Of a DNA stretch of 64,000 bases, positions 30,150-59,286 are shown one piece after another (the first letter of the stretch is position 1; every line of letters starts with the position of its first letter). A program made the translations under genes and the position numbers. Below the pieces are notes generated by a model. The model was given only the letters and a program-made list of their open reading frames with translations. It was not told the DNA's origin and made no database searches. Origin of the DNA: an uncultured delta proteobacterium (lineage in GTDB: Bacteria > Desulfobacterota > Desulfuromonadia > Geobacterales > DSM-12255); the NCBI GenBank assembly GCA_963787125.1, contig CAWBBV010000004.1, positions 96,001 to 160,000 on the forward strand. Reading direction: 5' to 3'.

Positions 30150-32048
30150 GTACGCCCGTCATGGGCGTGAACTTATGGGGTGCAAGTCCCCTGTACGGTG
30201 AATCCAACACTGTCGCGAGACAGCGTAAACCAAGTACTAGCCGAAGGCAAGGGCGTCTCCGCGAGGAGGGGGCTGGAGGAAGCCGGAGCGCAAAGCTATG
30301 AGCCGACGAACAGAAACAGCATACAAGGCCATCATCCGGGCAAGTCAGCACAACATGACGAAGTCCCTCGGGTTCAGGAGAAATGGTAAATGCTGCGGTT
30401 GTGTAGCCACAGTTCACGTTCTTATCCGGGGAGATCTGCTCCGCATGCCATTGATTCCTGATGGCGCGGCATCTGGTAACAGCTGCCGTGATGGAGCAGA
30501 AGTCAGCAGAAGCCATAGTAGGCGAAGGACGTTGCCGCAAGCGATCCGGCAACTGGAAACAAGCCCGGGAGAGTCCGGGAAGCCTTACCCCGCCGAAGGG
30601 CCGAACGATAGAAAAGGGGAGGAGCCCCAATGAGCTTTCATGACATATCGAACCCGTCCGGGGGAATGCCCATGGAGCGCGTCATTGACCAGCCAACCCC
30701 GGAGCAGCACCTACTGGAGCGGATATTATCCAGTGTGAACATGGAGCAAGCGTGGAAACGGGTCAAAGCCAATAAGGGCGCACCCGGCGTCGATGGCATC
30801 ACCATCGAACAATTCCCCGACCATACCCGTTCTCACTGGAACACTATTCGCGAATCGCTAATGACAGGCAGTTACCAACCTTTGCCGGTAAAGCGGGTAG
30901 AGATTCCCAAAGCAACGGGTGGAACCCGTCCGCTGGGGATACCCACTGTACTTGACCGGCTGATCCAACAGTCCATTGCCCAAGTGTTGACACCGATCTT
31001 CGATCCGGACTTCTCCGCATCGAGCTTCGGTTTCCGTCCCCGTCGGTCAGCAAAAGATGCTGTCCGAAAGGTGCGGGAGTACATCCAGCAGGGATACCGG
31101 ATTGCCGTGGATATTGACCTTGCCAAGTTCTTCGACACGGTCAACCATGATCTGCTCATGCACCTTGTGAGCAAGAAAGTTCACGACAAGCGGGTACTAG
31201 CCCTGATCGGCAAGTACTTACGGGCAGGTGTAGAGGTAAAAGGGCGTCTTGAAAAGACCAGACTGGGTGTCCCCCAGGGTGGCCCACTCTCGCCGCTTCT
31301 AGCCAACATCCTGCTCGACACACTGGACAAAGAACTTGAGAAACGCGGTCACAAATTCGTCCGCTATGCAGACGACTTCGTCATCCTCGTCAAAAGCCAG
31401 CGCGCCGGCGACCGGGTAATGGAAGGAATGAAAACCTTCCTGACCAGCAAACTCAAGCTCACAGTCAATGAAACCAAGAGTGCGGTAGCAAGAACATCCC
31501 GCATCGACTTCCTTGGTTTTATCTTCAGTGGCACCCGCATCATCTGGTCTGACAAGGCATACAAGGAATTCAGACGCCGCGTCAAACAGTATACCGGAAG
31601 AAGCTGGCGGGTCTCCATGAAGTACCGGATGTACAAACTGGCTCAATATCTCCGTGGCTGGATGGGGTACTTCGGCATCTCGGAGTATTACCGGGAAATC
31701 CCGGAAATAGACGGCTGGATACGGCGCAGGATACGGCTCTGCTACTGGAAGCAGTGGCGCTGGTGTCGTACCAAGATTCGGGAGCTGCTCAAGTTGGGGA
31801 CGGAGAAATTCACCGCCATCCGAGCGGGCCTGAATAGAAGTGGCCCGTGGGCCATGTCCCGAAGACTTGCAGCCCATACCGGTTTGACCAACAAATGTCT
31901 GAAGGATCAAGGTTTATTATCTGTCAAAGAACTGTGGGTGAAGCTTCACTACCCGGCTACGGCCCGGTAATTCTATCGAACCGCCGGATGCGGACCCGCA
32001 TGTCCGGTGGTGTGGGGGCTGGGGGAGAAAAACCCCCGGCTACCCGAT
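30150..32048 (+). mobile_element. Group IIC-attC intron, copy 1
   Basis: Starts GTACG, ends CCCGAT, domain V with a CGC triad, EBS1 ACAA at 30350; inserted at TAGT|T in the attC bottom strand. Confidence 0.92.
30630..31970 (+). CDS. ltrA: Group II intron reverse transcriptase/maturase (no endonuclease domain)
   Basis: NKGAPGVDG, RPLGIP, PQGGPLSP and YADD motifs; 446 aa. Confidence 0.95.
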   Translation: MSFHDISNPSGGMPMERVIDQPTPEQHLLERILSSVNMEQAWKRVKANKGAPGVDGITIEQFPDHTRSHWNTIRESLMTGSYQPLPVKRVEIPKATGGTRPLGIPTVLDRLIQQSIAQVLTPIFDPDFSASSFGFRPRRSAKDAVRKVREYIQQGYRIAVDIDLAKFFDTVNHDLLMHLVSKKVHDKRVLALIGKYLRAGVEVKGRLEKTRLGVPQGGPLSPLLANILLDTLDKELEKRGHKFVRYADDFVILVKSQRAGDRVMEGMKTFLTSKLKLTVNETKSAVARTSRIDFLGFIFSGTRIIWSDKAYKEFRRRVKQYTGRSWRVSMKYRMYKLAQYLRGWMGYFGISEYYREIPEIDGWIRRRIRLCYWKQWRWCRTKIRELLKLGTEKFTAIRAGLNRSGPWAMSRRLAAHTGLTNKCLKDQGLLSVKELWVKLHYPATAR

Positions 32049-35720: not shown

Positions 35721-35785
35721 GGCCAACGGGGCTTCGGCGCAGCGGCGAAGCGTCAGCGAAGACCGTCTGCCGCCGATAGTTGAAT
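35721..35785 (-). other. attC site
   Basis: GGCCAAC...TCGGCGCAGCGG/CCGTCTGCCGCCGA...GTTGAAT. Confidence 0.85.
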
Positions 35786-37566: not shown

Positions 37567-39466
37567 GTACGCCCGTCATGGGCGTGAACTTATGGGGTGC
37601 AAGTCCCCTGTACGGTGAATCCAACACTGTCGCGATGACAGCGTAAACCAAGTACTAGCCGAAGGCAAGGGCGTCTCCGCGAGGAGGGGTCTGGAGGAAG
37701 CCGGAGCGCAAAGCTATGAGCCGACGAACAGAAACAGCATACAAGGCCATCATCCGGGCAAGTCAGCACAACATGACGAAGTCCCTCGGGTTCAGGAGAA
37801 ATGGTAAATGCTGCGGTTGTGTAGCCACAGTTCACGTTCTTATCCGGGGAGATCTGCTCCGCATGCCATTGATTCCTGATGGCGCGGCATCTGGTAACAG
37901 CTGCCGTGATGGAGCAGAAGTCAGCAGAAGCCATAGTAGGCGAAGGACGTTGCCGCAAGCGATCCGGCAACTGGAAACAAGCCCGGGAGAGTCCGGGAAG
38001 CCTTACCCCGCCGAAGGGCCGAACGATAGAAAAGGGGAGGAGCCCCAATGAGCTTTCATGACATATCGAACCCGTCCGGGGGAATGCCCATGGAGCGCGT
38101 CATTGACCAGCCAACCCCGGAGCAGCACCTACTGGAGCGGATATTATCCAGTGTGAACATGGAGCAAGCGTGGAAACGGGTCAAAGCCAATAAGGGCGCA
38201 CCCGGCGTCGATGGCATCACCATCGAACAATTCCCCGACCATACCCGTTCTCACTGGAACACTATTCGCGAATCGCTAATGACAGGCAGTTACCAACCTT
38301 TGCCGGTAAAGCGGGTAGAGATTCCCAAAGCAACGGGTGGAACCCGTCCGCTGGGGATACCCACTGTACTTGACCGGCTGATCCAACAGTCCATTGCCCA
38401 AGTGTTGACACCGATCTTCGATCCGGACTTCTCCGCATCGAGCTTCGGTTTCCGTCCCCGTCGGTCAGCAAAAGATGCTGTCCGAAAGGTGCGGGAGTAC
38501 ATCCAGCAGGGATACCGGATTGCCGTGGATATTGACCTTGCCAAGTTCTTCGACACGGTCAACCATGATCTGCTCATGCACCTTGTGAGCAAGAAAGTTC
38601 ACGACAAGCGGGTACTAGCCCTGATCGGCAAGTACTTACGGGCAGGTGTAGAGGTAAAAGGGCGTCTTGAAAAGACCAGACTGGGTGTCCCCCAGGGTGG
38701 CCCACTCTCGCCGCTTCTAGCCAACATCCTGCTCGACACACTGGACAAAGAACTTGAGAAACGCGGTCACAAATTCGTCCGCTATGCAGACGACTTCGTC
38801 ATCCTCGTCAAAAGCCAGCGCGCCGGCGACCGGGTAATGGAAGGAATGAAAACCTTCCTGACCAGCAAACTCAAGCTCACAGTCAATGAAACCAAGAGTG
38901 CGGTAGCAAGAACATCCCGCATCGACTTCCTTGGTTTTATCTTCAGTGGCACCCGCATCATCTGGTCTGACAAGGCATACAAGGAATTCAGACGCCGCGT
39001 CAAACAGTATACCGGAAGAAGCTGGCGGGTCTCCATGAAGTACCGGATGTACAAACTGGCTCAATATCTCCGTGGCTGGATGGGGTACTTCGGCATCTCG
39101 GAGTATTACCGGGAAATCCCGGAAATAGACGGCTGGATACGGCGCAGGATACGGCTCTGCTACTGGAAGCAGTGGCGCTGGTGTCGTACCAAGATTCGGG
39201 AGCTGCTCAAGTTGGGGACGGAGAAATTCACCGCCATCCGAGCGGGCCTGAATAGAAGTGGCCCGTGGGCCATGTCCCGAAGACTTGCAGCCCATACCGG
39301 TTTGACCAACAAATGTCTGAAGGATCAAGGTTTATTATCTGTCAAAGAACTGTGGGTGAAGCTTCACTACCCGGCTACGGCCCGGTAATTCTATCGAACC
39401 GCCGGATGCGGACCCGCATGTCCGGTGGTGTGGGGGCTGGGGGAGAAAAACCCCCGGCTACCCGAT
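37567..39466 (+). mobile_element. Group IIC-attC intron, copy 2
   Basis: Near-identical to copy 1 with an identical protein; inserted at TTGT|T. Confidence 0.92.
38048..39388 (+). CDS. ltrA: Group II intron reverse transcriptase/maturase
   Basis: Same protein sequence as 30630-31970. Confidence 0.95.
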   Translation: MSFHDISNPSGGMPMERVIDQPTPEQHLLERILSSVNMEQAWKRVKANKGAPGVDGITIEQFPDHTRSHWNTIRESLMTGSYQPLPVKRVEIPKATGGTRPLGIPTVLDRLIQQSIAQVLTPIFDPDFSASSFGFRPRRSAKDAVRKVREYIQQGYRIAVDIDLAKFFDTVNHDLLMHLVSKKVHDKRVLALIGKYLRAGVEVKGRLEKTRLGVPQGGPLSPLLANILLDTLDKELEKRGHKFVRYADDFVILVKSQRAGDRVMEGMKTFLTSKLKLTVNETKSAVARTSRIDFLGFIFSGTRIIWSDKAYKEFRRRVKQYTGRSWRVSMKYRMYKLAQYLRGWMGYFGISEYYREIPEIDGWIRRRIRLCYWKQWRWCRTKIRELLKLGTEKFTAIRAGLNRSGPWAMSRRLAAHTGLTNKCLKDQGLLSVKELWVKLHYPATAR

Positions 39467-45827: not shown

Positions 45828-47728
45828 GTACGCCCGTCATGGGCGTGAACTTATGGGGTGCAAGTCCCCTGTACGGTGAATCCAACACTGTCGCGAGACA
45901 GCGTAAACCAAGTACTAGCCGAAGGCAAGGGCGTCTCCGCGAGGAGGGGTCTGGAGGAAGCCGGAGCGCAAAGCTATGAGCCGACGAACAGAAACAGCAT
46001 ACAAGGCCATCATCCGGGCAAGTCAGCACAACATGACGAAGTCCCATGGGTTCAGGAGAAATGGTAAATGCTGCGGTTGTGTAGCCACAGTTCACGTTCT
46101 TATCCGGGGAGATCTGTCCGAATTGCCGTTCCAGATACGTGGGGCTGCGCTCTGCATGGCAACATGCCGGGTATCGGACAGAAGTCAGCAGAAGCCATAG
46201 TAGGCGCGAGACGTTGCCGCAAGCGATCCGGCAACTGGAAACAAGCCCGGCAGAGTCCGGGAAGCCTTACCCCGCCGAAGGGCCGAACGAAGAAAGGGGA
46301 GTAGCACCAATGAGCTTTCATGACATAAAGAACCCGTCCGGGGGAATGCCTATGGAGCGCGTCATTGATCAGCCAACCCCTGAGCAGCACCTACTGGAGC
46401 GGATACTCTCCAGTGCGAACATGGAGCAAGCGTGGAAACGGGTCAAAGCCAATAAGGGCGCACCCGGCGTCGATGGCATCACCATCGAACAATTCCCCGA
46501 CCATACCCGTTCTCACTGGAACACTATTCGCGAATCGCTAATGACAGGCAGTTACCAACCTTTGCCGGTAAAGCGGGTAGAGATTCCCAAAGCAACGGGT
46601 GGAACCCGTCCGCTGGGGATACCCACTGTACTTGACCGGCTGATCCAACAGTCCATTGCCCAAGTGTTGACACCGATCTTCGATCCGGACTTCTCCGCAT
46701 CGAGCTTCGGTTTCCGTCCCCGTCGGTCAGCAAAAGATGCTGTCCGAAAGGTGCGGGAGTACATCCAGCAGGGATACCGGATTGCCGTGGATATTGACCT
46801 TGCCAAGTTCTTCGACACGGTCAACCATGATCTGCTCATGCACCTTGTGAGCAAGAAAGTTCACGACAAGCGGGTACTAGCCCTGATCGGCACGTACTTA
46901 CGGGCAGGTGTAAAGGTAAACGGGCGTCTTGAAAAGACCAGACTGGGTGTTCCCCAGGGTGGCCCCCTCTCGCCGCTTCTTGCCAATATCCTGCTCGACA
47001 CACTGGACAAAGAACTTGAGAAACGCGGTCACAAGTTCGTCCGCTATGCAGACGACTTCGTCATCCTCGTCAAAAGCCAGCGCGCCGGCGTCCGGGTAAT
47101 GGAAGGGATGAAAACCTTCCTGACCAGCAAACTCAAGCTTAACGTCAATGAAACCAAGAGTGCGGTAGCAAGAACATCCCGCATCGACTTCCTTGGTTTT
47201 ATCTTCAGTGGCACCCGCATCATCTGGTCTGACAAGGCATACAAGGAATTCAGACGCCGCGTCAAACAGTATACCGGAAGAAGCTGGCGGGTCTCCATGA
47301 AGTACCGGTTGTATAAACTGGCTCAATATCTCCGTGGCTGGATGGGGTACTTCGGAATATCGGAGTATTACCGTGAAATTCCGGAAATAGACGGTTGGAT
47401 AAGGCGCAGGATACGGCTCTGTTACTGGAAACAGTGGCGCTGGTGTCGTACCAAGATCAAGAATCTACTGGCACTTGGTACGCAACTTGGCACCGCCATC
47501 CGAGCGGGCCTGAATAGAAGCGGCCCGTGGGCGATGTCCCGAAGATTGGCTGCTCATACCGGTTTGACCAACAAATGTCTGAAGGATCAAGGCTTATTAT
47601 CTGTCAAAGAACTGTGGGTGAAGCTTCACTACCCGGCTACGGCCCGGTAATTCTATCGAACCGCCGGATGCGGACCCGCATGTCCGGTGGTGTGGGGGCT
47701 GGGGGAGAAAAACCCCCGGCTACCCGAT
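45828..47728 (+). mobile_element. Group IIC-attC intron, copy 3 (mosaic variant)
   Basis: Same ends as copies 1 and 2, with divergent blocks at 46114-46181 and 47458-47500. Confidence 0.92.
46310..47650 (+). CDS. ltrA: Group II intron reverse transcriptase/maturase
   Basis: 446 aa from ATG 46310; YADD motif; a few substitutions versus copies 1 and 2. Confidence 0.95.
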   Translation: MSFHDIKNPSGGMPMERVIDQPTPEQHLLERILSSANMEQAWKRVKANKGAPGVDGITIEQFPDHTRSHWNTIRESLMTGSYQPLPVKRVEIPKATGGTRPLGIPTVLDRLIQQSIAQVLTPIFDPDFSASSFGFRPRRSAKDAVRKVREYIQQGYRIAVDIDLAKFFDTVNHDLLMHLVSKKVHDKRVLALIGTYLRAGVKVNGRLEKTRLGVPQGGPLSPLLANILLDTLDKELEKRGHKFVRYADDFVILVKSQRAGVRVMEGMKTFLTSKLKLNVNETKSAVARTSRIDFLGFIFSGTRIIWSDKAYKEFRRRVKQYTGRSWRVSMKYRLYKLAQYLRGWMGYFGISEYYREIPEIDGWIRRRIRLCYWKQWRWCRTKIKNLLALGTQLGTAIRAGLNRSGPWAMSRRLAAHTGLTNKCLKDQGLLSVKELWVKLHYPATAR

Positions 47729-51476: not shown

Positions 51477-51545
51477 GTTCAACGGGGCTGCGCCTGACCT
51501 GCCGGGCGGGTGTTTGCCCGGTCATGGTCTTGGCGCGTGTTGGGC
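51477..51545 (-). other. attC site
   Basis: GTTCAAC...GCGCCTGACC/GGTCTTGGCGC...GTTGGGC. Confidence 0.88.
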
Positions 51546-53383: not shown

Positions 53384-53436
53384 GCTCAACGGGGCTGAGG
53401 GTGTGCGGGCTTCACCGCACCACCCGATGGTTGGCT
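53384..53436 (-). other. attC site (short)
   Basis: GCTCAAC...GGGTGTGCGG/CCGCACCACCC...GTTGGCT. Confidence 0.8.
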
Positions 53437-56489: not shown

Positions 56490-56558
56490 GGCTAACGGTG
56501 CCGCGCTTGACCTGCCGGGCGGGTTTATGCCCGGTCATGGTCTGAGCGCGTGTTAGCT
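56490..56558 (-). other. attC site
   Basis: GGCTAAC...GCGCTTGACC/GGTCTGAGCGC...GTTAGCT; related to the 51477 site. Confidence 0.88.
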
Positions 56559-56559
56559 G

Positions 56560-56958
56560 TCAAAGTCCTTCTATTTTCTGAACCGTTAGCAATACCTTTG
56601 TCATGTGGTGAGCGGTATGCGCATGGAAAAGAGTCCCTGTTGCCTTTATCTTCTTGCCATTGTATTTTTTGACAATTGCTTTTGAGGACGCTGCATCTCC
56701 CATTAAGACCAGCTGTACTAATTTCACGCCTTTTTCAGCATCTCCGAAATCATCTTTTGCGACATCTACAGCGGCATCCAGCTTGATTGCGTAATACCTA
56801 CTCTTCTTGCCGGTTTCTTCGTCTTTGTGCTCTGGCTTCACGAATGTTCCAACAAGTTGCACAACTTCAGGTTCTGTTTTCAACTCCACTCCGAAAGCGA
56901 AAGAAGAAATGAGCAAGCACATGCACAAAAGTACGCATCGAAATATTTTCTGATTCAT
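56560..56958 (-). CDS. Secreted DUF4431-like protein
   Basis: Signal peptide and GTLFHAHTAHHMTKVLL motif. Confidence 0.65.
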   Translation of the reverse strand: MNQKIFRCVLLCMCLLISSFAFGVELKTEPEVVQLVGTFVKPEHKDEETGKKSRYYAIKLDAAVDVAKDDFGDAEKGVKLVQLVLMGDAASSKAIVKKYNGKKIKATGTLFHAHTAHHMTKVLLTVQKIEGL

Positions 56959-56976
56959 TCATTCTCCTTATTCAGC

Positions 56977-59225
56977 ACCGGGTAGGTCAGGAGCCTTTCG
57001 GCTCCTTTCCCCCCTCAGAACCGTACGTGACAGTTTCCCGTCATACGGCTCAAGCCCTCCAAAGTAATCTCCCTCTCGGGATACCCGGCTATCTGCTTCT
57101 TTCCTCGGTGTTGTTGTCCCTTCACGCCGCTTTTCGGGCGGCGCGACCTGCTCGCCTTCTTTGTTGCTCGGCTCTTCGCGCCTTGAAGTATGCTTCATAC
57201 TCCGGGTCGAAGGGATTGGCGGCACCGCGAATCTTGATGTGTCTCTCGATCTTGGTGCTGGTAGCGTGAATGAGTGTTACCCGGCGTTTTCCTTCCGGGG
57301 TTTTCTCCATCACGGAGAAGTACGTGCTCACGGGGGTGCTGTGCCAGTATGTCTTCGTCAGCCAGCGCTTCCCCTTGTGCGGATGCCTTCTCCTTGCCCA
57401 ATCCCGCAGGTAGCGGTAGATTTGGCTGTCCAGTGCGGCGAAGGTGGCTTTTGCGGCGATGTTCCGGTGATAGTTGCTCCAGCCCCGAATGATCGGATTC
57501 AAGGCGCGGATCATATCACCGGCTTTCATTGCCGAGAATTTCCGGATCGTCTCCCTGATTCTGGTCAGGATGGTTCTGTAGTTGCTCCTGGCCGGTTTCG
57601 TTAGGAACTTCCCGCTGTACTTGCGCGGGTGTTGCCCCAGAAAGTCGAATCCGTCCTCTATCCGCGTTATCCGGGTTTTCTCCGGGGAGAGGGTGAGACC
57701 TCTTTCTTGAAGAAACCTTTCTACCGCTGGTTTGATCGTCTCTTCGAGAAGTTCTTTCGTCTTCCCGGTGATGACGAAGTCGTCGGCGTAGCGGATAACG
57801 TTGACTTTGGTGCGGTAAGGGGTGACGGCTTTTACTGCCGCTTCCAGACCGTCCAGAGTCATGTTGGCCAAGAGCGGGGAGATGATTCCCCCTTGCGGGG
57901 TTCCCGCTTTGGTCGGATAGAGTCTGCCTTCGTCGAAGTACCCTGCGTTCAGCCACTGCCGGAGCATAAGACGATCCATGGGGATATTGCTCATGAGCCA
58001 GTCATGGCCAATCTCGTCGAAACAGGCTTTGATGTCTCCTTCCAGTATCCATTGTGCCGAGTACTTCTTTGCCAGTCCGATGTAGCATTGGTGGATGGCG
58101 TCGGCGCAACTTCGATACGGGCGGAATCCGTATGAATTGGGATCACCCTTAGTCTCGGCCACCGGTAACAGTGCTTGTGCGTAAAGCGCTTGCATAGCCC
58201 TGTCATGCATGGTGGGGATACCCAAAGGGCGCATCTTGCCGTTCTTCTTCGGTATGTAGACCCGCCGTAGTGGCCGGGCTTGATAACCGCGACGTTGCAA
58301 GGTGTGTACAGCTTTCATTCTCTGCTTCGGCGTGTACCAGATTGCTCCGTCCACGCCGGGGGTTTTTCTTCCTCGATTGGAAACAACCCGTTTGACGGCT
58401 AATGCTTTGCCGGCAAACGAGTGGGTCAGAAGCCATTGCAGGGTTTTCACTCTGCCGCGGCGACCTTCCCTGACAGCCTTTGCGATACGGATTTGCAGTC
58501 TTCGGACTTCGCGGCGGGCTTTCTGCCAGTTTATGGCTTTCCAGTCGTTGCCGCTGGCGGAGGGTGCACCAGTCAATCTTGCGATTGCCGCCATTTGCTT
58601 TCCCTCCCAAGGAAGATTCTCCAAACGATCTCGCAATGGAGCACCGGCATTGGACGTCAGCTCCCTTTCGGGCCGAGTGATGTTTCAACCCGTATCCGTC
58701 CCATTACAGGGCGGCATTCGCTTCTTCCGGCCTCTTACTCCCGCACTCCCGACAGTGTGCCTTACGGTTTCACCTGCTCCAGTCTACCGGAGCGGAAATA
58801 CGGGGTTTCCACGTTCCACGTCTCTGACGATGGGTGACTTAGGTCCATTCTGTACACCGGCAGCACTATTGTCCCCGCAGGGGCACCGTTACATCCCCTG
58901 ACCGGCTGCATACCTTTTGGTTCAAGCCTGTCAGCCTCATTTGGCTTGCTCCCCTTGACGGCGCGAGCGAACGTTCACTTGTGTTGACCATATCACCTTT
59001 GAATCCTAGCCCTCACCCGGATCAAGGCTTCCAGGAGGGCGGTCGCCTCACGGTTTCCGCCCCTCCCGCAACAGCGGAATTCGGCTACATTGTTGGAAGG
59101 GCTCCGCACCAGCATGGATGCACCATGGCAGCACGCCTTCCTAGGATACCCGCGGGGGAACACGGGGTCTGGTCAGAATAATCATCATTCAGCCAGACAG
59201 TCATCAACGCGACATCGTGTCGCGA
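56977..59225 (-). mobile_element. Group II intron (CL/IIB-like) inserted in the attC R' core on the top strand
   Basis: 5' end TCGCGACACG; domain V GAGCCGTATGACGGGAAACTGTCACGTACGGTTC; 3' end CCCGGT; removal restores GTTA|GCT. Confidence 0.85.
57122..58636 (-). CDS. ltrA: Group II intron reverse transcriptase/maturase with an RVT_N domain and no HNH domain
   Basis: WKAINW...RLQIRIAKA, KTPGVDG, PQGGIISP, YADD and NPFDP motifs; the start may be 58594. Confidence 0.92.
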   Translation of the reverse strand: MRDRLENLPWEGKQMAAIARLTGAPSASGNDWKAINWQKARREVRRLQIRIAKAVREGRRGRVKTLQWLLTHSFAGKALAVKRVVSNRGRKTPGVDGAIWYTPKQRMKAVHTLQRRGYQARPLRRVYIPKKNGKMRPLGIPTMHDRAMQALYAQALLPVAETKGDPNSYGFRPYRSCADAIHQCYIGLAKKYSAQWILEGDIKACFDEIGHDWLMSNIPMDRLMLRQWLNAGYFDEGRLYPTKAGTPQGGIISPLLANMTLDGLEAAVKAVTPYRTKVNVIRYADDFVITGKTKELLEETIKPAVERFLQERGLTLSPEKTRITRIEDGFDFLGQHPRKYSGKFLTKPARSNYRTILTRIRETIRKFSAMKAGDMIRALNPIIRGWSNYHRNIAAKATFAALDSQIYRYLRDWARRRHPHKGKRWLTKTYWHSTPVSTYFSVMEKTPEGKRRVTLIHATSTKIERHIKIRGAANPFDPEYEAYFKARRAEQQRRRAGRAARKAA

Positions 59226-59286
59226 TAACGGGGCCGAGGCGCACCGGCGGAGCGTAGCGAAGACCAAGTGCCGCCCATTGTTCGGC
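59226..59286 (-). other. attC site whose R' core is split by intron 4 (remainder at 56974-56976)
   Basis: TAAC...GGCGCAC/GTGCCGCC...GTTCGGC. Confidence 0.8.

Follow-up and report, generated by a model that had tools for sequence, protein, structure and literature searches.

A group IIB intron without an endonuclease domain whose guide sequence is complementary to the top-strand attC R' core of integron cassettes

The subject of this report is a group II intron inserted into an integron cassette array, on the minus strand of a 64,000-nt stretch of DNA from an uncultured delta proteobacterium (contig CAWBBV010000004.1, genome G000) – the window, to which all coordinates refer unless another contig is named. 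With a probability that we put at about 0.8, it is an intact and recently mobile intron of the chloroplast-like (CL)/IIB type, lacking an endonuclease (En) domain and belonging to a clade in which exon-binding site 1 (EBS1) reads UAACGG (AACGGG in one sub-branch) and complements the core C-GTT-R of the R' box on the top strand of attC, the recombination site of the cassettes. The features concerned are collected in Table 1; in the sequences below, a slash marks a junction.

The limits of the intron are fixed by a second copy in the same genome (G000:C5:24933-27181), which is 100% identical to it across 2249 nt. Both copies read ...CCGTT(A/G)/TCGCG...CCCGGT/G..., with flanks that diverge beyond: the junctions are ...GCCTCGGCCCCGTTA/UCGCG...CCCGGU/GCTGAATAAGG in the window and ...GCTCTCAGCCGTTG/UCGCG...CCCGGU/GAGCAAAG in the C5 copy. 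Identity begins at 59231, is interrupted at 59226 (A versus G) and is unbroken from 59225 on. The original prediction had run the intron from 56977 to 59240; its 3' end stands, whereas 59240 takes in 15 nt of the 5' exon and the start is 59225. A canonical GTGCG does occur 15 nt upstream of this 5' end, at 59244..59240, and an intron opening there would lie outside the R' core; yet the inter-copy identity begins only where described, and the relatives all open with (U/C)CGCG after unrelated flanks. The GTGCG is thereby ruled out as anything other than exon, and we give an intron start at it practically no credence. The two copies – the only ones in the whole genome – occupy different attCs with unlike flanks on either side, the C5 copy sitting at the same position (GTTG/GAG) of a different, shorter attC; recent mobility follows from this combination of complete identity with different sites and differing flanks. 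The YADD motif, the AGC triad of domain V and the bulged A of domain VI are all intact, the RF00029 alignment displaying both the triad and the UA bulge by which group II domains V and VI are recognised.

The ends had been called non-canonical, and rightly so: UCGCG...GGU departs from the group II consensus 5'-GUGYG...AY-3' and is conserved in the relatives. The first and penultimate nucleotides of group II introns contact each other – a contact reportedly described by Chanfreau and Jacquier in 1993 – and among 43 distinct full-length introns the two change together, with pyrimidine and G in 33, G and A in nine, and U and A in a single one, L038 (UCGCG...GAU), the sole exception. This co-variation fits a working contact between the two positions, in which case the odd ends would be functional. 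The length of the encoded protein also varies among the relatives: an HNH tail (about 292 aa after YADD) is found with canonical GUGCG ends and is absent (about 218-239 aa) from nearly all introns with non-canonical ends, the exceptions being L094 (UUGCG with HNH) and L124 (UCGCG without HNH, placed among the GUGCG rows).

The assignment to the CL/IIB type – part of the original prediction, together with the RVT_N domain and the absence of HNH – is supported by comparison of both the protein and the RNA family, at a level that takes CL1 and CL2 together. The open reading frame (ORF) sits between the RF02012 and RF00029 matches, and its product, which has the domains of a reverse transcriptase/maturase, extends for 222 aa after YADD, compared with about 292 aa in En-bearing relatives. 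Its closest solved relative is PDB 6ME0 (E 1.8e-163, residues 3-478 against 7-483 of 562); IIC reverse transcriptases match it at 1e-39 to 6e-38 and LtrA at 1.5e-37. It is about 55% identical to the proteins of plasmid introns of E. coli and others and groups in the tree with that of an E. coli plasmid CL-type intron, and a canonical E. coli plasmid intron (L135) likewise matches RF02012. In domain I, the hairpin at the EBS2 position lies 5' of the EBS1 hairpin and a putative alpha' follows EBS1, an order that is conserved and is the one expected for IIB introns, although the EBS2 loop pairs with the exon no better than in shuffles and neither EBS3 nor the coordination loop was located; T.el4h and EcI5 we take to be CL1/IIB1. 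The proteins of the attC clade end in a conserved basic tail, ...RRAGRAARKAA.

The intron splits the R' box of an attC at GTTA/GCT, a position that the sequence and the comparison of the two copies both bear out. This site begins 36 nt past the stop of the upstream cassette ORF and has the make-up of an attC – inverted R''/R' cores, paired inner arms and a position at a cassette ORF's 3' end. Two measures were applied to it and to other sites. R1 is a sequence-only attC model built from 12 unambiguous attCs of the window that do not adjoin the intron (RNAalifold on a MAFFT alignment of the attCs gave no consensus pairs, so the model carries no structure). The duplex test looks for an AAC 40-90 nt upstream of the GTT, pairs the 24 nt that follow it with the 24 nt that precede GTT and scores the strongest duplex; the background is made up of 188 CGTT sites from the part of the window outside the integron, and its lowest 5% sets the attC call; as a positive control, 12 of 12 known attCs fell within the lowest 0.5%. 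The intron's own 5' flank matches R1 at 59282..59226 (model positions 5-66 of 69, E 0.0035) and scores -17.8 kcal/mol in the duplex test, with 2.1% of background sites equal or lower. The crossover point of the integron integrase (IntI) is established as G/TT, and the insertion lies 3 nt past it.

Around the intron, the cassette ORFs all lie on the minus strand, so the intron is sense to the cassettes, as had been predicted. The 17 matches of R1 within the window lie without exception on the minus strand, between 62485 and 32821, and CGTT at the R' end is invariant in the 12 aligned attCs. The orientation of the array and its attCs is deduced from ORF direction and the position of the integrase gene only; the latter (C4:161732-162667; TIGR02249, 340.9 bits, cut-off 265) lies 1.7 kb beyond the right end of the window and is divergent from the array. 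A second integron integrase gene is found on another contig (G000:C23:106715-107650, 337.8 bits), 2.2 kb from a reverse-transcriptase gene that two in-frame TGA codons break up (C23:103687-104481).

Removing the intron restores GTTAGCT, which is, as originally noted, the exact complement of the next R'' box (AGCTAAC, 56558..56552; the plus strand reads GTTAGCT at 56552-56558). As a general rule such complementarity was rejected: among 20 loci, nine of them with flanks shorter than 600 nt, it is exact in two (the window and L029) and reaches 6/7 in L026.

Table 1. Features of the intron, its target site and the surrounding array (window coordinates)
Feature	Position	Strand	Basis
Group II intron, full length, 2249 nt, 5'-UCGCG...GGU-3'	56977..59225	(-)	Identical second copy; relatives whose flanks diverge exactly there
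Domain I segment, Rfam RF02012 (group-II-D1D4-7)	59009..59167	(-)	91.3 bits vs gathering score 34
EBS2-position hairpin, stem CAAGCC/GGCUUG, loop AAAUGAGGCUGACA (58942..58929)	58923..58948	(-)	Present in 9/9 aligned relatives
EBS1 UAACGG, in loop of hairpin 58900..58878 (loop AUGUAACGGUG)	58886..58891	(-)	Consensus fold of 9 relatives; co-variation
Putative alpha' GGGGA, just 3' of EBS1 hairpin	58872..58876	(-)	Suggested by consensus fold
Intron-encoded protein, 490 aa, ATG behind GGAGGG; RVT_N, RVT_1 (YADD) and GIIM, without En/HNH	57122..58594	(-)	Pfam
Domains V and VI, AGC triad and bulged A of domain VI	56977..57053	(-)	RF00029, 69.8 bits, full length 1-77
Intron-binding site 1 (IBS1) CCGTTA, last 6 nt of 5' exon, covering the R' core's GTT and the conserved C before it	59226..59231	(-)	Complementary to EBS1
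5' part of split attC, R'' GCCGAAC 59283..59277 to R' GTTA 59229..59226	59226..59283	(-)	R1 model; duplex test
3' part of split R' box, GCT, first 3 nt of 3' exon	56974..56976	(-)	Sequence
Downstream cassette ORF, DUF4431, 132 aa, start 19 nt after intron 3' end	56560..56958	(-)	ORF; Pfam
Downstream cassette attC, R'' AGCTAAC, R' GTTAGCC	56490..56558	(-)	R1 44.2 bits; duplex -33.5 kcal/mol
Empty attC ending ...TCAGCCCCGTTGAGC, exact ideal target, no intron	53384..53435	(-)	Sequence
Three other group II introns, antisense to cassettes	30255-32048, 37673-39466, 45933-47728	(+)	RF02001/RF01998/RF00029

The link between intron and target is carried by EBS1. Its predicted location and its pairing with CCGTTA hold up on three counts, the motif lying in a hairpin loop, at the domain Id position of the fold, and co-varying with the exon in relatives. 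The consensus fold of nine relatives is that of a standard domain I, in which some 55 nt separate the EBS2-position hairpin from the EBS1 hairpin on its 3' side; in the window copy EBS1 and IBS1 form six base pairs – the pairing by which such sites are defined. Across the relatives, the loop UAACGG goes with exons ending ..CGTTR/, and AACGGG with ..CGTT/, one base earlier (n=6 distinct introns); L070 has the loop UGAUAG and the 5' exon CCTATCA/. Outside the clade, the same correspondence is seen between AUAGCC and GGCTAT/ (L038), UGCAUG and CATGCA/ (L114), and CUGAC and GTCAG/ (L087). The putative alpha' sequence GGGGA could pair with UCCCC in the IB loop (about 59159..59155) as alpha-alpha', judging by the consensus fold.

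The predicted EBS2, GGCUGA at 58936..58931, fared less well: it does lie in a hairpin loop, but its pairing with TCGGCC (6/6) is found in the window copy only. The same GGCUGA:UCGGCC register pairs 2/6 at the identical C5 copy and 1-4/6 in 20 other relatives with a GGCUGA loop, and helices of 10 bp between loop and exon are found in L027 and L069 only. Roughly half of the sites allow another register, AUGAGGC:GCCUYAU at -15..-9, but this recurrence may just reflect related attC families. An EBS2-IBS2 pairing is thus not established from these sequences, as it fits the window copy only.

The relatives were gathered by protein-guided scans, which gave 32 genome loci and 80 metagenome loci, and by a DNA search with the intron's 5' 400 nt, which was found in 21 of 238 other genomes of the same order; their ends were placed with profile hidden Markov models, and each distinct 5' flank of introns opening (U/C)CGCG was counted once. 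The expectation that their flanks would mostly be attC R' cores was borne out: 40 of the 41 distinct 5' junctions end in GTT(R)/ (24/25 in a first set and 16/16 in an added one), the exception being the retargeted L070, and 32 of the 41 are attC by the duplex test or an abutting R1 match. The duplex test placed 18/25 and 13/16 of the junctions in the lowest 5%, and 13 loci have an R1 match that runs up to the junction and stops at model positions 65-67 (GTT or GTTR), one further match being partial; all 16 R1 matches in the relatives' loci lie on the intron's strand. Another attC test, based on the minimum free energy of the AAC...GTT span with three end pairs free or forced, was discarded: it placed intron sites at 1-70% of the background and did not discriminate, because longer spans always score lower, and the fixed-arm duplex test was used instead.

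A quick maximum-likelihood tree of 91 intron proteins (114 loci, 104 with an ORF of at least 400 aa, 13 duplicates dropped) places the window protein in a clade of 23 rows with a support of 99 in the SH-like approximate likelihood-ratio test (SH-aLRT). L070 is its first branch; the remaining 22 rows have a support of 94, and all members of this group with a known junction sit at CGTT(R). The neighbouring clade consists of UUGCG/CUGCG...GGU introns in AT-rich, non-attC flanks, and further out are canonical GUGCG...GAC introns with HNH tails, so that the separate attC lineage foreseen in the original prediction appears as one clade nested among non-attC relatives. About nine rows with wrong or frameshifted longest ORFs were kept and form very long branches, which leave the clade of interest unaffected and make the order of the deep clades unreliable. 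Among 19 ORFs of the attC clade, YADD is present in 18 (not in L064) and the full tail of 222-226 aa in 17 (that of L071 has 199 aa).

Some of the relatives' loci show further peculiarities. At four attC sites (L161, L170, L171 and L172) only the first 120-121 nt of the intron are present; at least three of these matches stop at a contig end and may be assembly breaks in a repeat. A fragment of about 80 nt from the 5' end of a related intron (79% identity) follows ...CACCGTTA/ at G000:C2:98417-98487 (L003 1507-1588), outside any array and at a site with no attC features. In L101, L102, L108-L110, L112, L113 and L116, which are near-identical soil metagenome contigs, a second intron 5' end (TTGCG/TTGTG ACACGAA) comes directly after ...GTTCTTAGGGGA; as this lies inside domain VI of the first intron, the arrangement looks like a nested, twintron-like one. 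Two metagenome contigs, L055 and L056, carry an identical 2249-nt intron and have 348 of 349 nt of 3' flank in common, with different upstream attCs. They were considered as proof of transport at the level of the cassette and rejected as such: the base that immediately precedes the intron is not the same in the two, which misfits a G/TT crossover, and recombination between intron copies and chimeric assembly are equally possible.

How specific is the target? The ideal sequence TCAGCCCCGTTG occurs exactly at 53398..53387 (-), with one mismatch at 51491..51480 and at the intron's own site, and with two at 35735..35724. All four are attC R' ends, in agreement with the original prediction of an ideal target at the attC at 53384 and near matches near 51477 and 35721. 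Taken as a whole, matches with up to two mismatches number 13 against 8.6 expected, a figure reached in 7 of 100 shuffles and so not above chance. The genome holds 4194 CCGTTR sites on both strands, of which only 3.6% reach the attC-likeness of the two occupied ones; given that both genome copies and 32 of the 41 junctions lie in attCs, the 6-nt guide alone does not account for the preference, and either a further cue or the loss of insertions elsewhere must act beside EBS1. For counting targets across the whole genome, an nhmmer attC profile proved too insensitive, with 16 matches and the C5 array missed. The choice of strand, by contrast, can be explained by the C before GTT, which is near-confined to the attC top strand, being present there in 12 of 12 window attCs compared with C at the equivalent bottom-strand position in one of 12.

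The mechanism that we envisage starts with transcription of the intron along with the cassettes, after which its own protein would assist splicing. The lariat ribonucleoprotein would then reverse-splice at GTTR/ in the top strand, 3 nt past the IntI crossover, or at GTT/, 2 nt past it, and cDNA synthesis – in an intron without an En domain – would presumably be finished from replication-fork primers. An intron inserted in this way would lie 3' of the crossover and hence formally be part of the downstream cassette; by geometry only, from this position, it would be expected to travel with that cassette. With regard to the replication strand, the GC skew (-0.005 for contig C4, local bins near zero) was too weak for a lagging-strand call. 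The same downstream cassette without the intron was not found in 60 relatives, where only the attC part matched and no empty-site allele was present. The attC at 56490-56558 resembles attC-like repeats (79-93% identity, about 45-70 nt) in 27 of 60 same-order genomes; this attC family is widely shared among the 60, the downstream cassette ORF not. RNA-library contigs from three studies match stretches of the intron with a likeness of 88-95% and thus represent relatives rather than the window intron itself. A contig from an RNA library (run X15) skips 1587 nt (window 57064-58652), a gap that opens shortly ahead of the ORF and closes shortly ahead of domain V, which suggests an ORF-less derivative of a related intron.

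Several observations weigh against an attC-directed, active intron. Nine of the 41 junctions (L003, L029, L055, L062, L063, L070, L167, L170 and L173) are without attC support: the flank of L055 is just 40 nt long, L170 is marginal, in L062 no more than the L'-R' half of an attC is left, and L003, L029, L063, L167 and L173 have no evident attC, yet do have CGTT(R). The L029 locus may still be a cassette array, because a box 354 nt downstream is exactly complementary to its restored R'. A perfect-match attC stands unoccupied 3.6 kb away, and eight of the 12 aligned window attCs carry CCGTTR; with just two copies in the genome, homing is evidently not saturating. On the side of the RNA, the EBS2 loop pairs with the exon no better than in shuffles (longest helix 5.6 versus 5.0 on average), EBS3 and the coordination loop were not located in the domain I fold, and the first base of the 3' exon is variable, both among the 14 relatives of the initial comparison and across the larger collection. 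No contig from four public runs joins across 56977-59225, and neither a splice junction nor an empty site was seen among them. Many of the relatives, moreover, come from metagenome assemblies, in which an identical 2.2-kb repeat can give chimeric joins, and related genomes are non-independent samples, though their flanks differ.

Part of this evidence would suit a simpler account, in which targeting amounts to a 6-nt CCGTTR match anywhere and the enrichment in attCs arises later, through purging from genes and the spread of harmless intergenic insertions with cassettes. Six to nine of the 41 junctions are indeed non-attC sites that still have CGTT(R), the half-site of L062 indicates that a folded full site is unneeded, and extra pairing through EBS2 is no better than in shuffles. 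We nonetheless regard this account as unlikely, since attC-like sites make up so small a part of the 4194 CCGTTR sites (3.6%) compared with 2/2 copies and 32/41 junctions; a sense, splicing intron in a gene should also be tolerated, which makes purging alone a weak filter, and the EBS1 sequence is kept throughout the clade. Considerably less probable again is a splicing-dead relic with decayed ends, whose copies would owe their spread to the movement of cassettes by IntI or to homologous recombination in place of retrohoming. Such a relic would be in keeping with ends that deviate from GUGYG...AY, with public-run contigs that include no spliced product, and with the L055/L056 pattern, which could come from recombination or mis-assembly; against it, 33 of 43 distinct introns retain these ends, their first and penultimate bases having changed in step, and of the 19 attC-clade ORFs 18 have YADD and 17 the full tail. 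The two genome copies, furthermore, differ in both flanks, which cassette movement cannot yield, and EBS1 follows the exon even where the target has changed (L070, L038).

From an intact, mobile intron with an attC-complementary EBS1, one may go a step further to a reading that joins all these elements, and that we hold to be slightly better than an even bet: a second, independent colonisation of attC that mirrors the IIC-attC introns, by an En-less CL/IIB clade that would use a 6-nt EBS1 together with a further attC cue (such as protein contact, single-stranded or hairpin DNA, or replication context), splice from cassette transcripts, ride with the downstream cassette in IntI recombination, and have compensatory U1/penultimate-G ends. 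If this is true, cassette arrays are a niche shared by two unrelated intron lineages on opposite strands. A sense intron would be removable from cassette mRNA, and its effects on expression and recombination should differ from those of IIC-attC introns, which block Pc transcripts. The clade also offers a naturally occurring collection of splice-site ends that are non-canonical and have changed in step, and a case in which the specificity of a 6-nt guide clearly exceeds its own information content and so points to a further recognition step. Finally, IIB introns serve as gene-targeting tools, and an attC-directed one could be of practical interest.

Among known systems, the closest solved protein is that of T.el4h (the Thermosynechococcus IIB intron of PDB 6ME0, E 1.8e-163). 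The E. coli plasmid CL introns, such as L135, share the RF02012 domain I and about 55% protein identity with the window intron; both T.el4h and the plasmid introns differ from it in their canonical GUGCG...AC ends (GUGCG...GAC in L135) and their HNH endonuclease tail. The array itself also contains three introns antisense to the cassettes, whose proteins are about 34% identical to the IIB protein. IIC-attC introns are inserted at TTGT/T; the third antisense intron (45933-47728) is flanked by attC halves, ...GCGCTTGT/intron/TGGAC, in the position of an IIC-attC intron, and since it too splits an attC, both types of attC-invading intron coexist in one array.

According to the accessible part of the literature, attC targeting by group II introns has been tied to the antisense class IIC, with a single IIB case in addition. 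IIC-attC introns, as described in the available sections of one account (PMC3001079), occupy the bottom strand of attC, antisense to the cassettes. Like the clade described here, this S.ma.I2 lineage is a monophyletic group of attC specialists without En that uses the GTT-bearing 3' box of its strand; unlike it, these introns cannot splice from cassette transcripts, carry outward promoters and have RNA and protein of class IIC. The window intron is neither of class IIC nor on the bottom strand nor antisense: it lies sense in the top strand, its RNA carries a 6-nt EBS1 together with a hairpin at the EBS2 position, and the IIC-type proteins of the same genome share only about 34% identity with its own. 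An unusual IIC intron in an attC's top strand, in Enterobacter cloacae, is cited in what is accessible of PMC7923331.

That same paper (Sonbol & Siam 2021, Mob DNA 12:8, PMC7923331) was, by title or abstract, the sole match of our literature search for a non-IIC intron in a cassette array. The portion available describes UHB.I2, one full IIB1/CL1 intron with UUGCG..GU ends and no En, sense-oriented and lying "immediately after an attC site"; for its homologues, that portion reports no exon conservation and makes no claim of a lineage. UHB.I2 and the window intron are thus alike in being IIB introns with a CL-type protein, no En, non-canonical ends, sense orientation and a place on the 3' side of an attC. 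By the published description, to the extent that it is available, UHB.I2 differs in being a single case and in opening with UUGCG rather than UCGCG; the UUGCG/CUGCG relatives that have its end type sit, in our sample, in AT-rich, non-attC flanks, whereas the window intron belongs to a whole clade with an attC R' target and a matching EBS1. As far as that search goes, what had been published is a single sense IIB case beside an attC, and what is new, and well supported, is a IIB lineage that shares the attC R' target on the sense strand.

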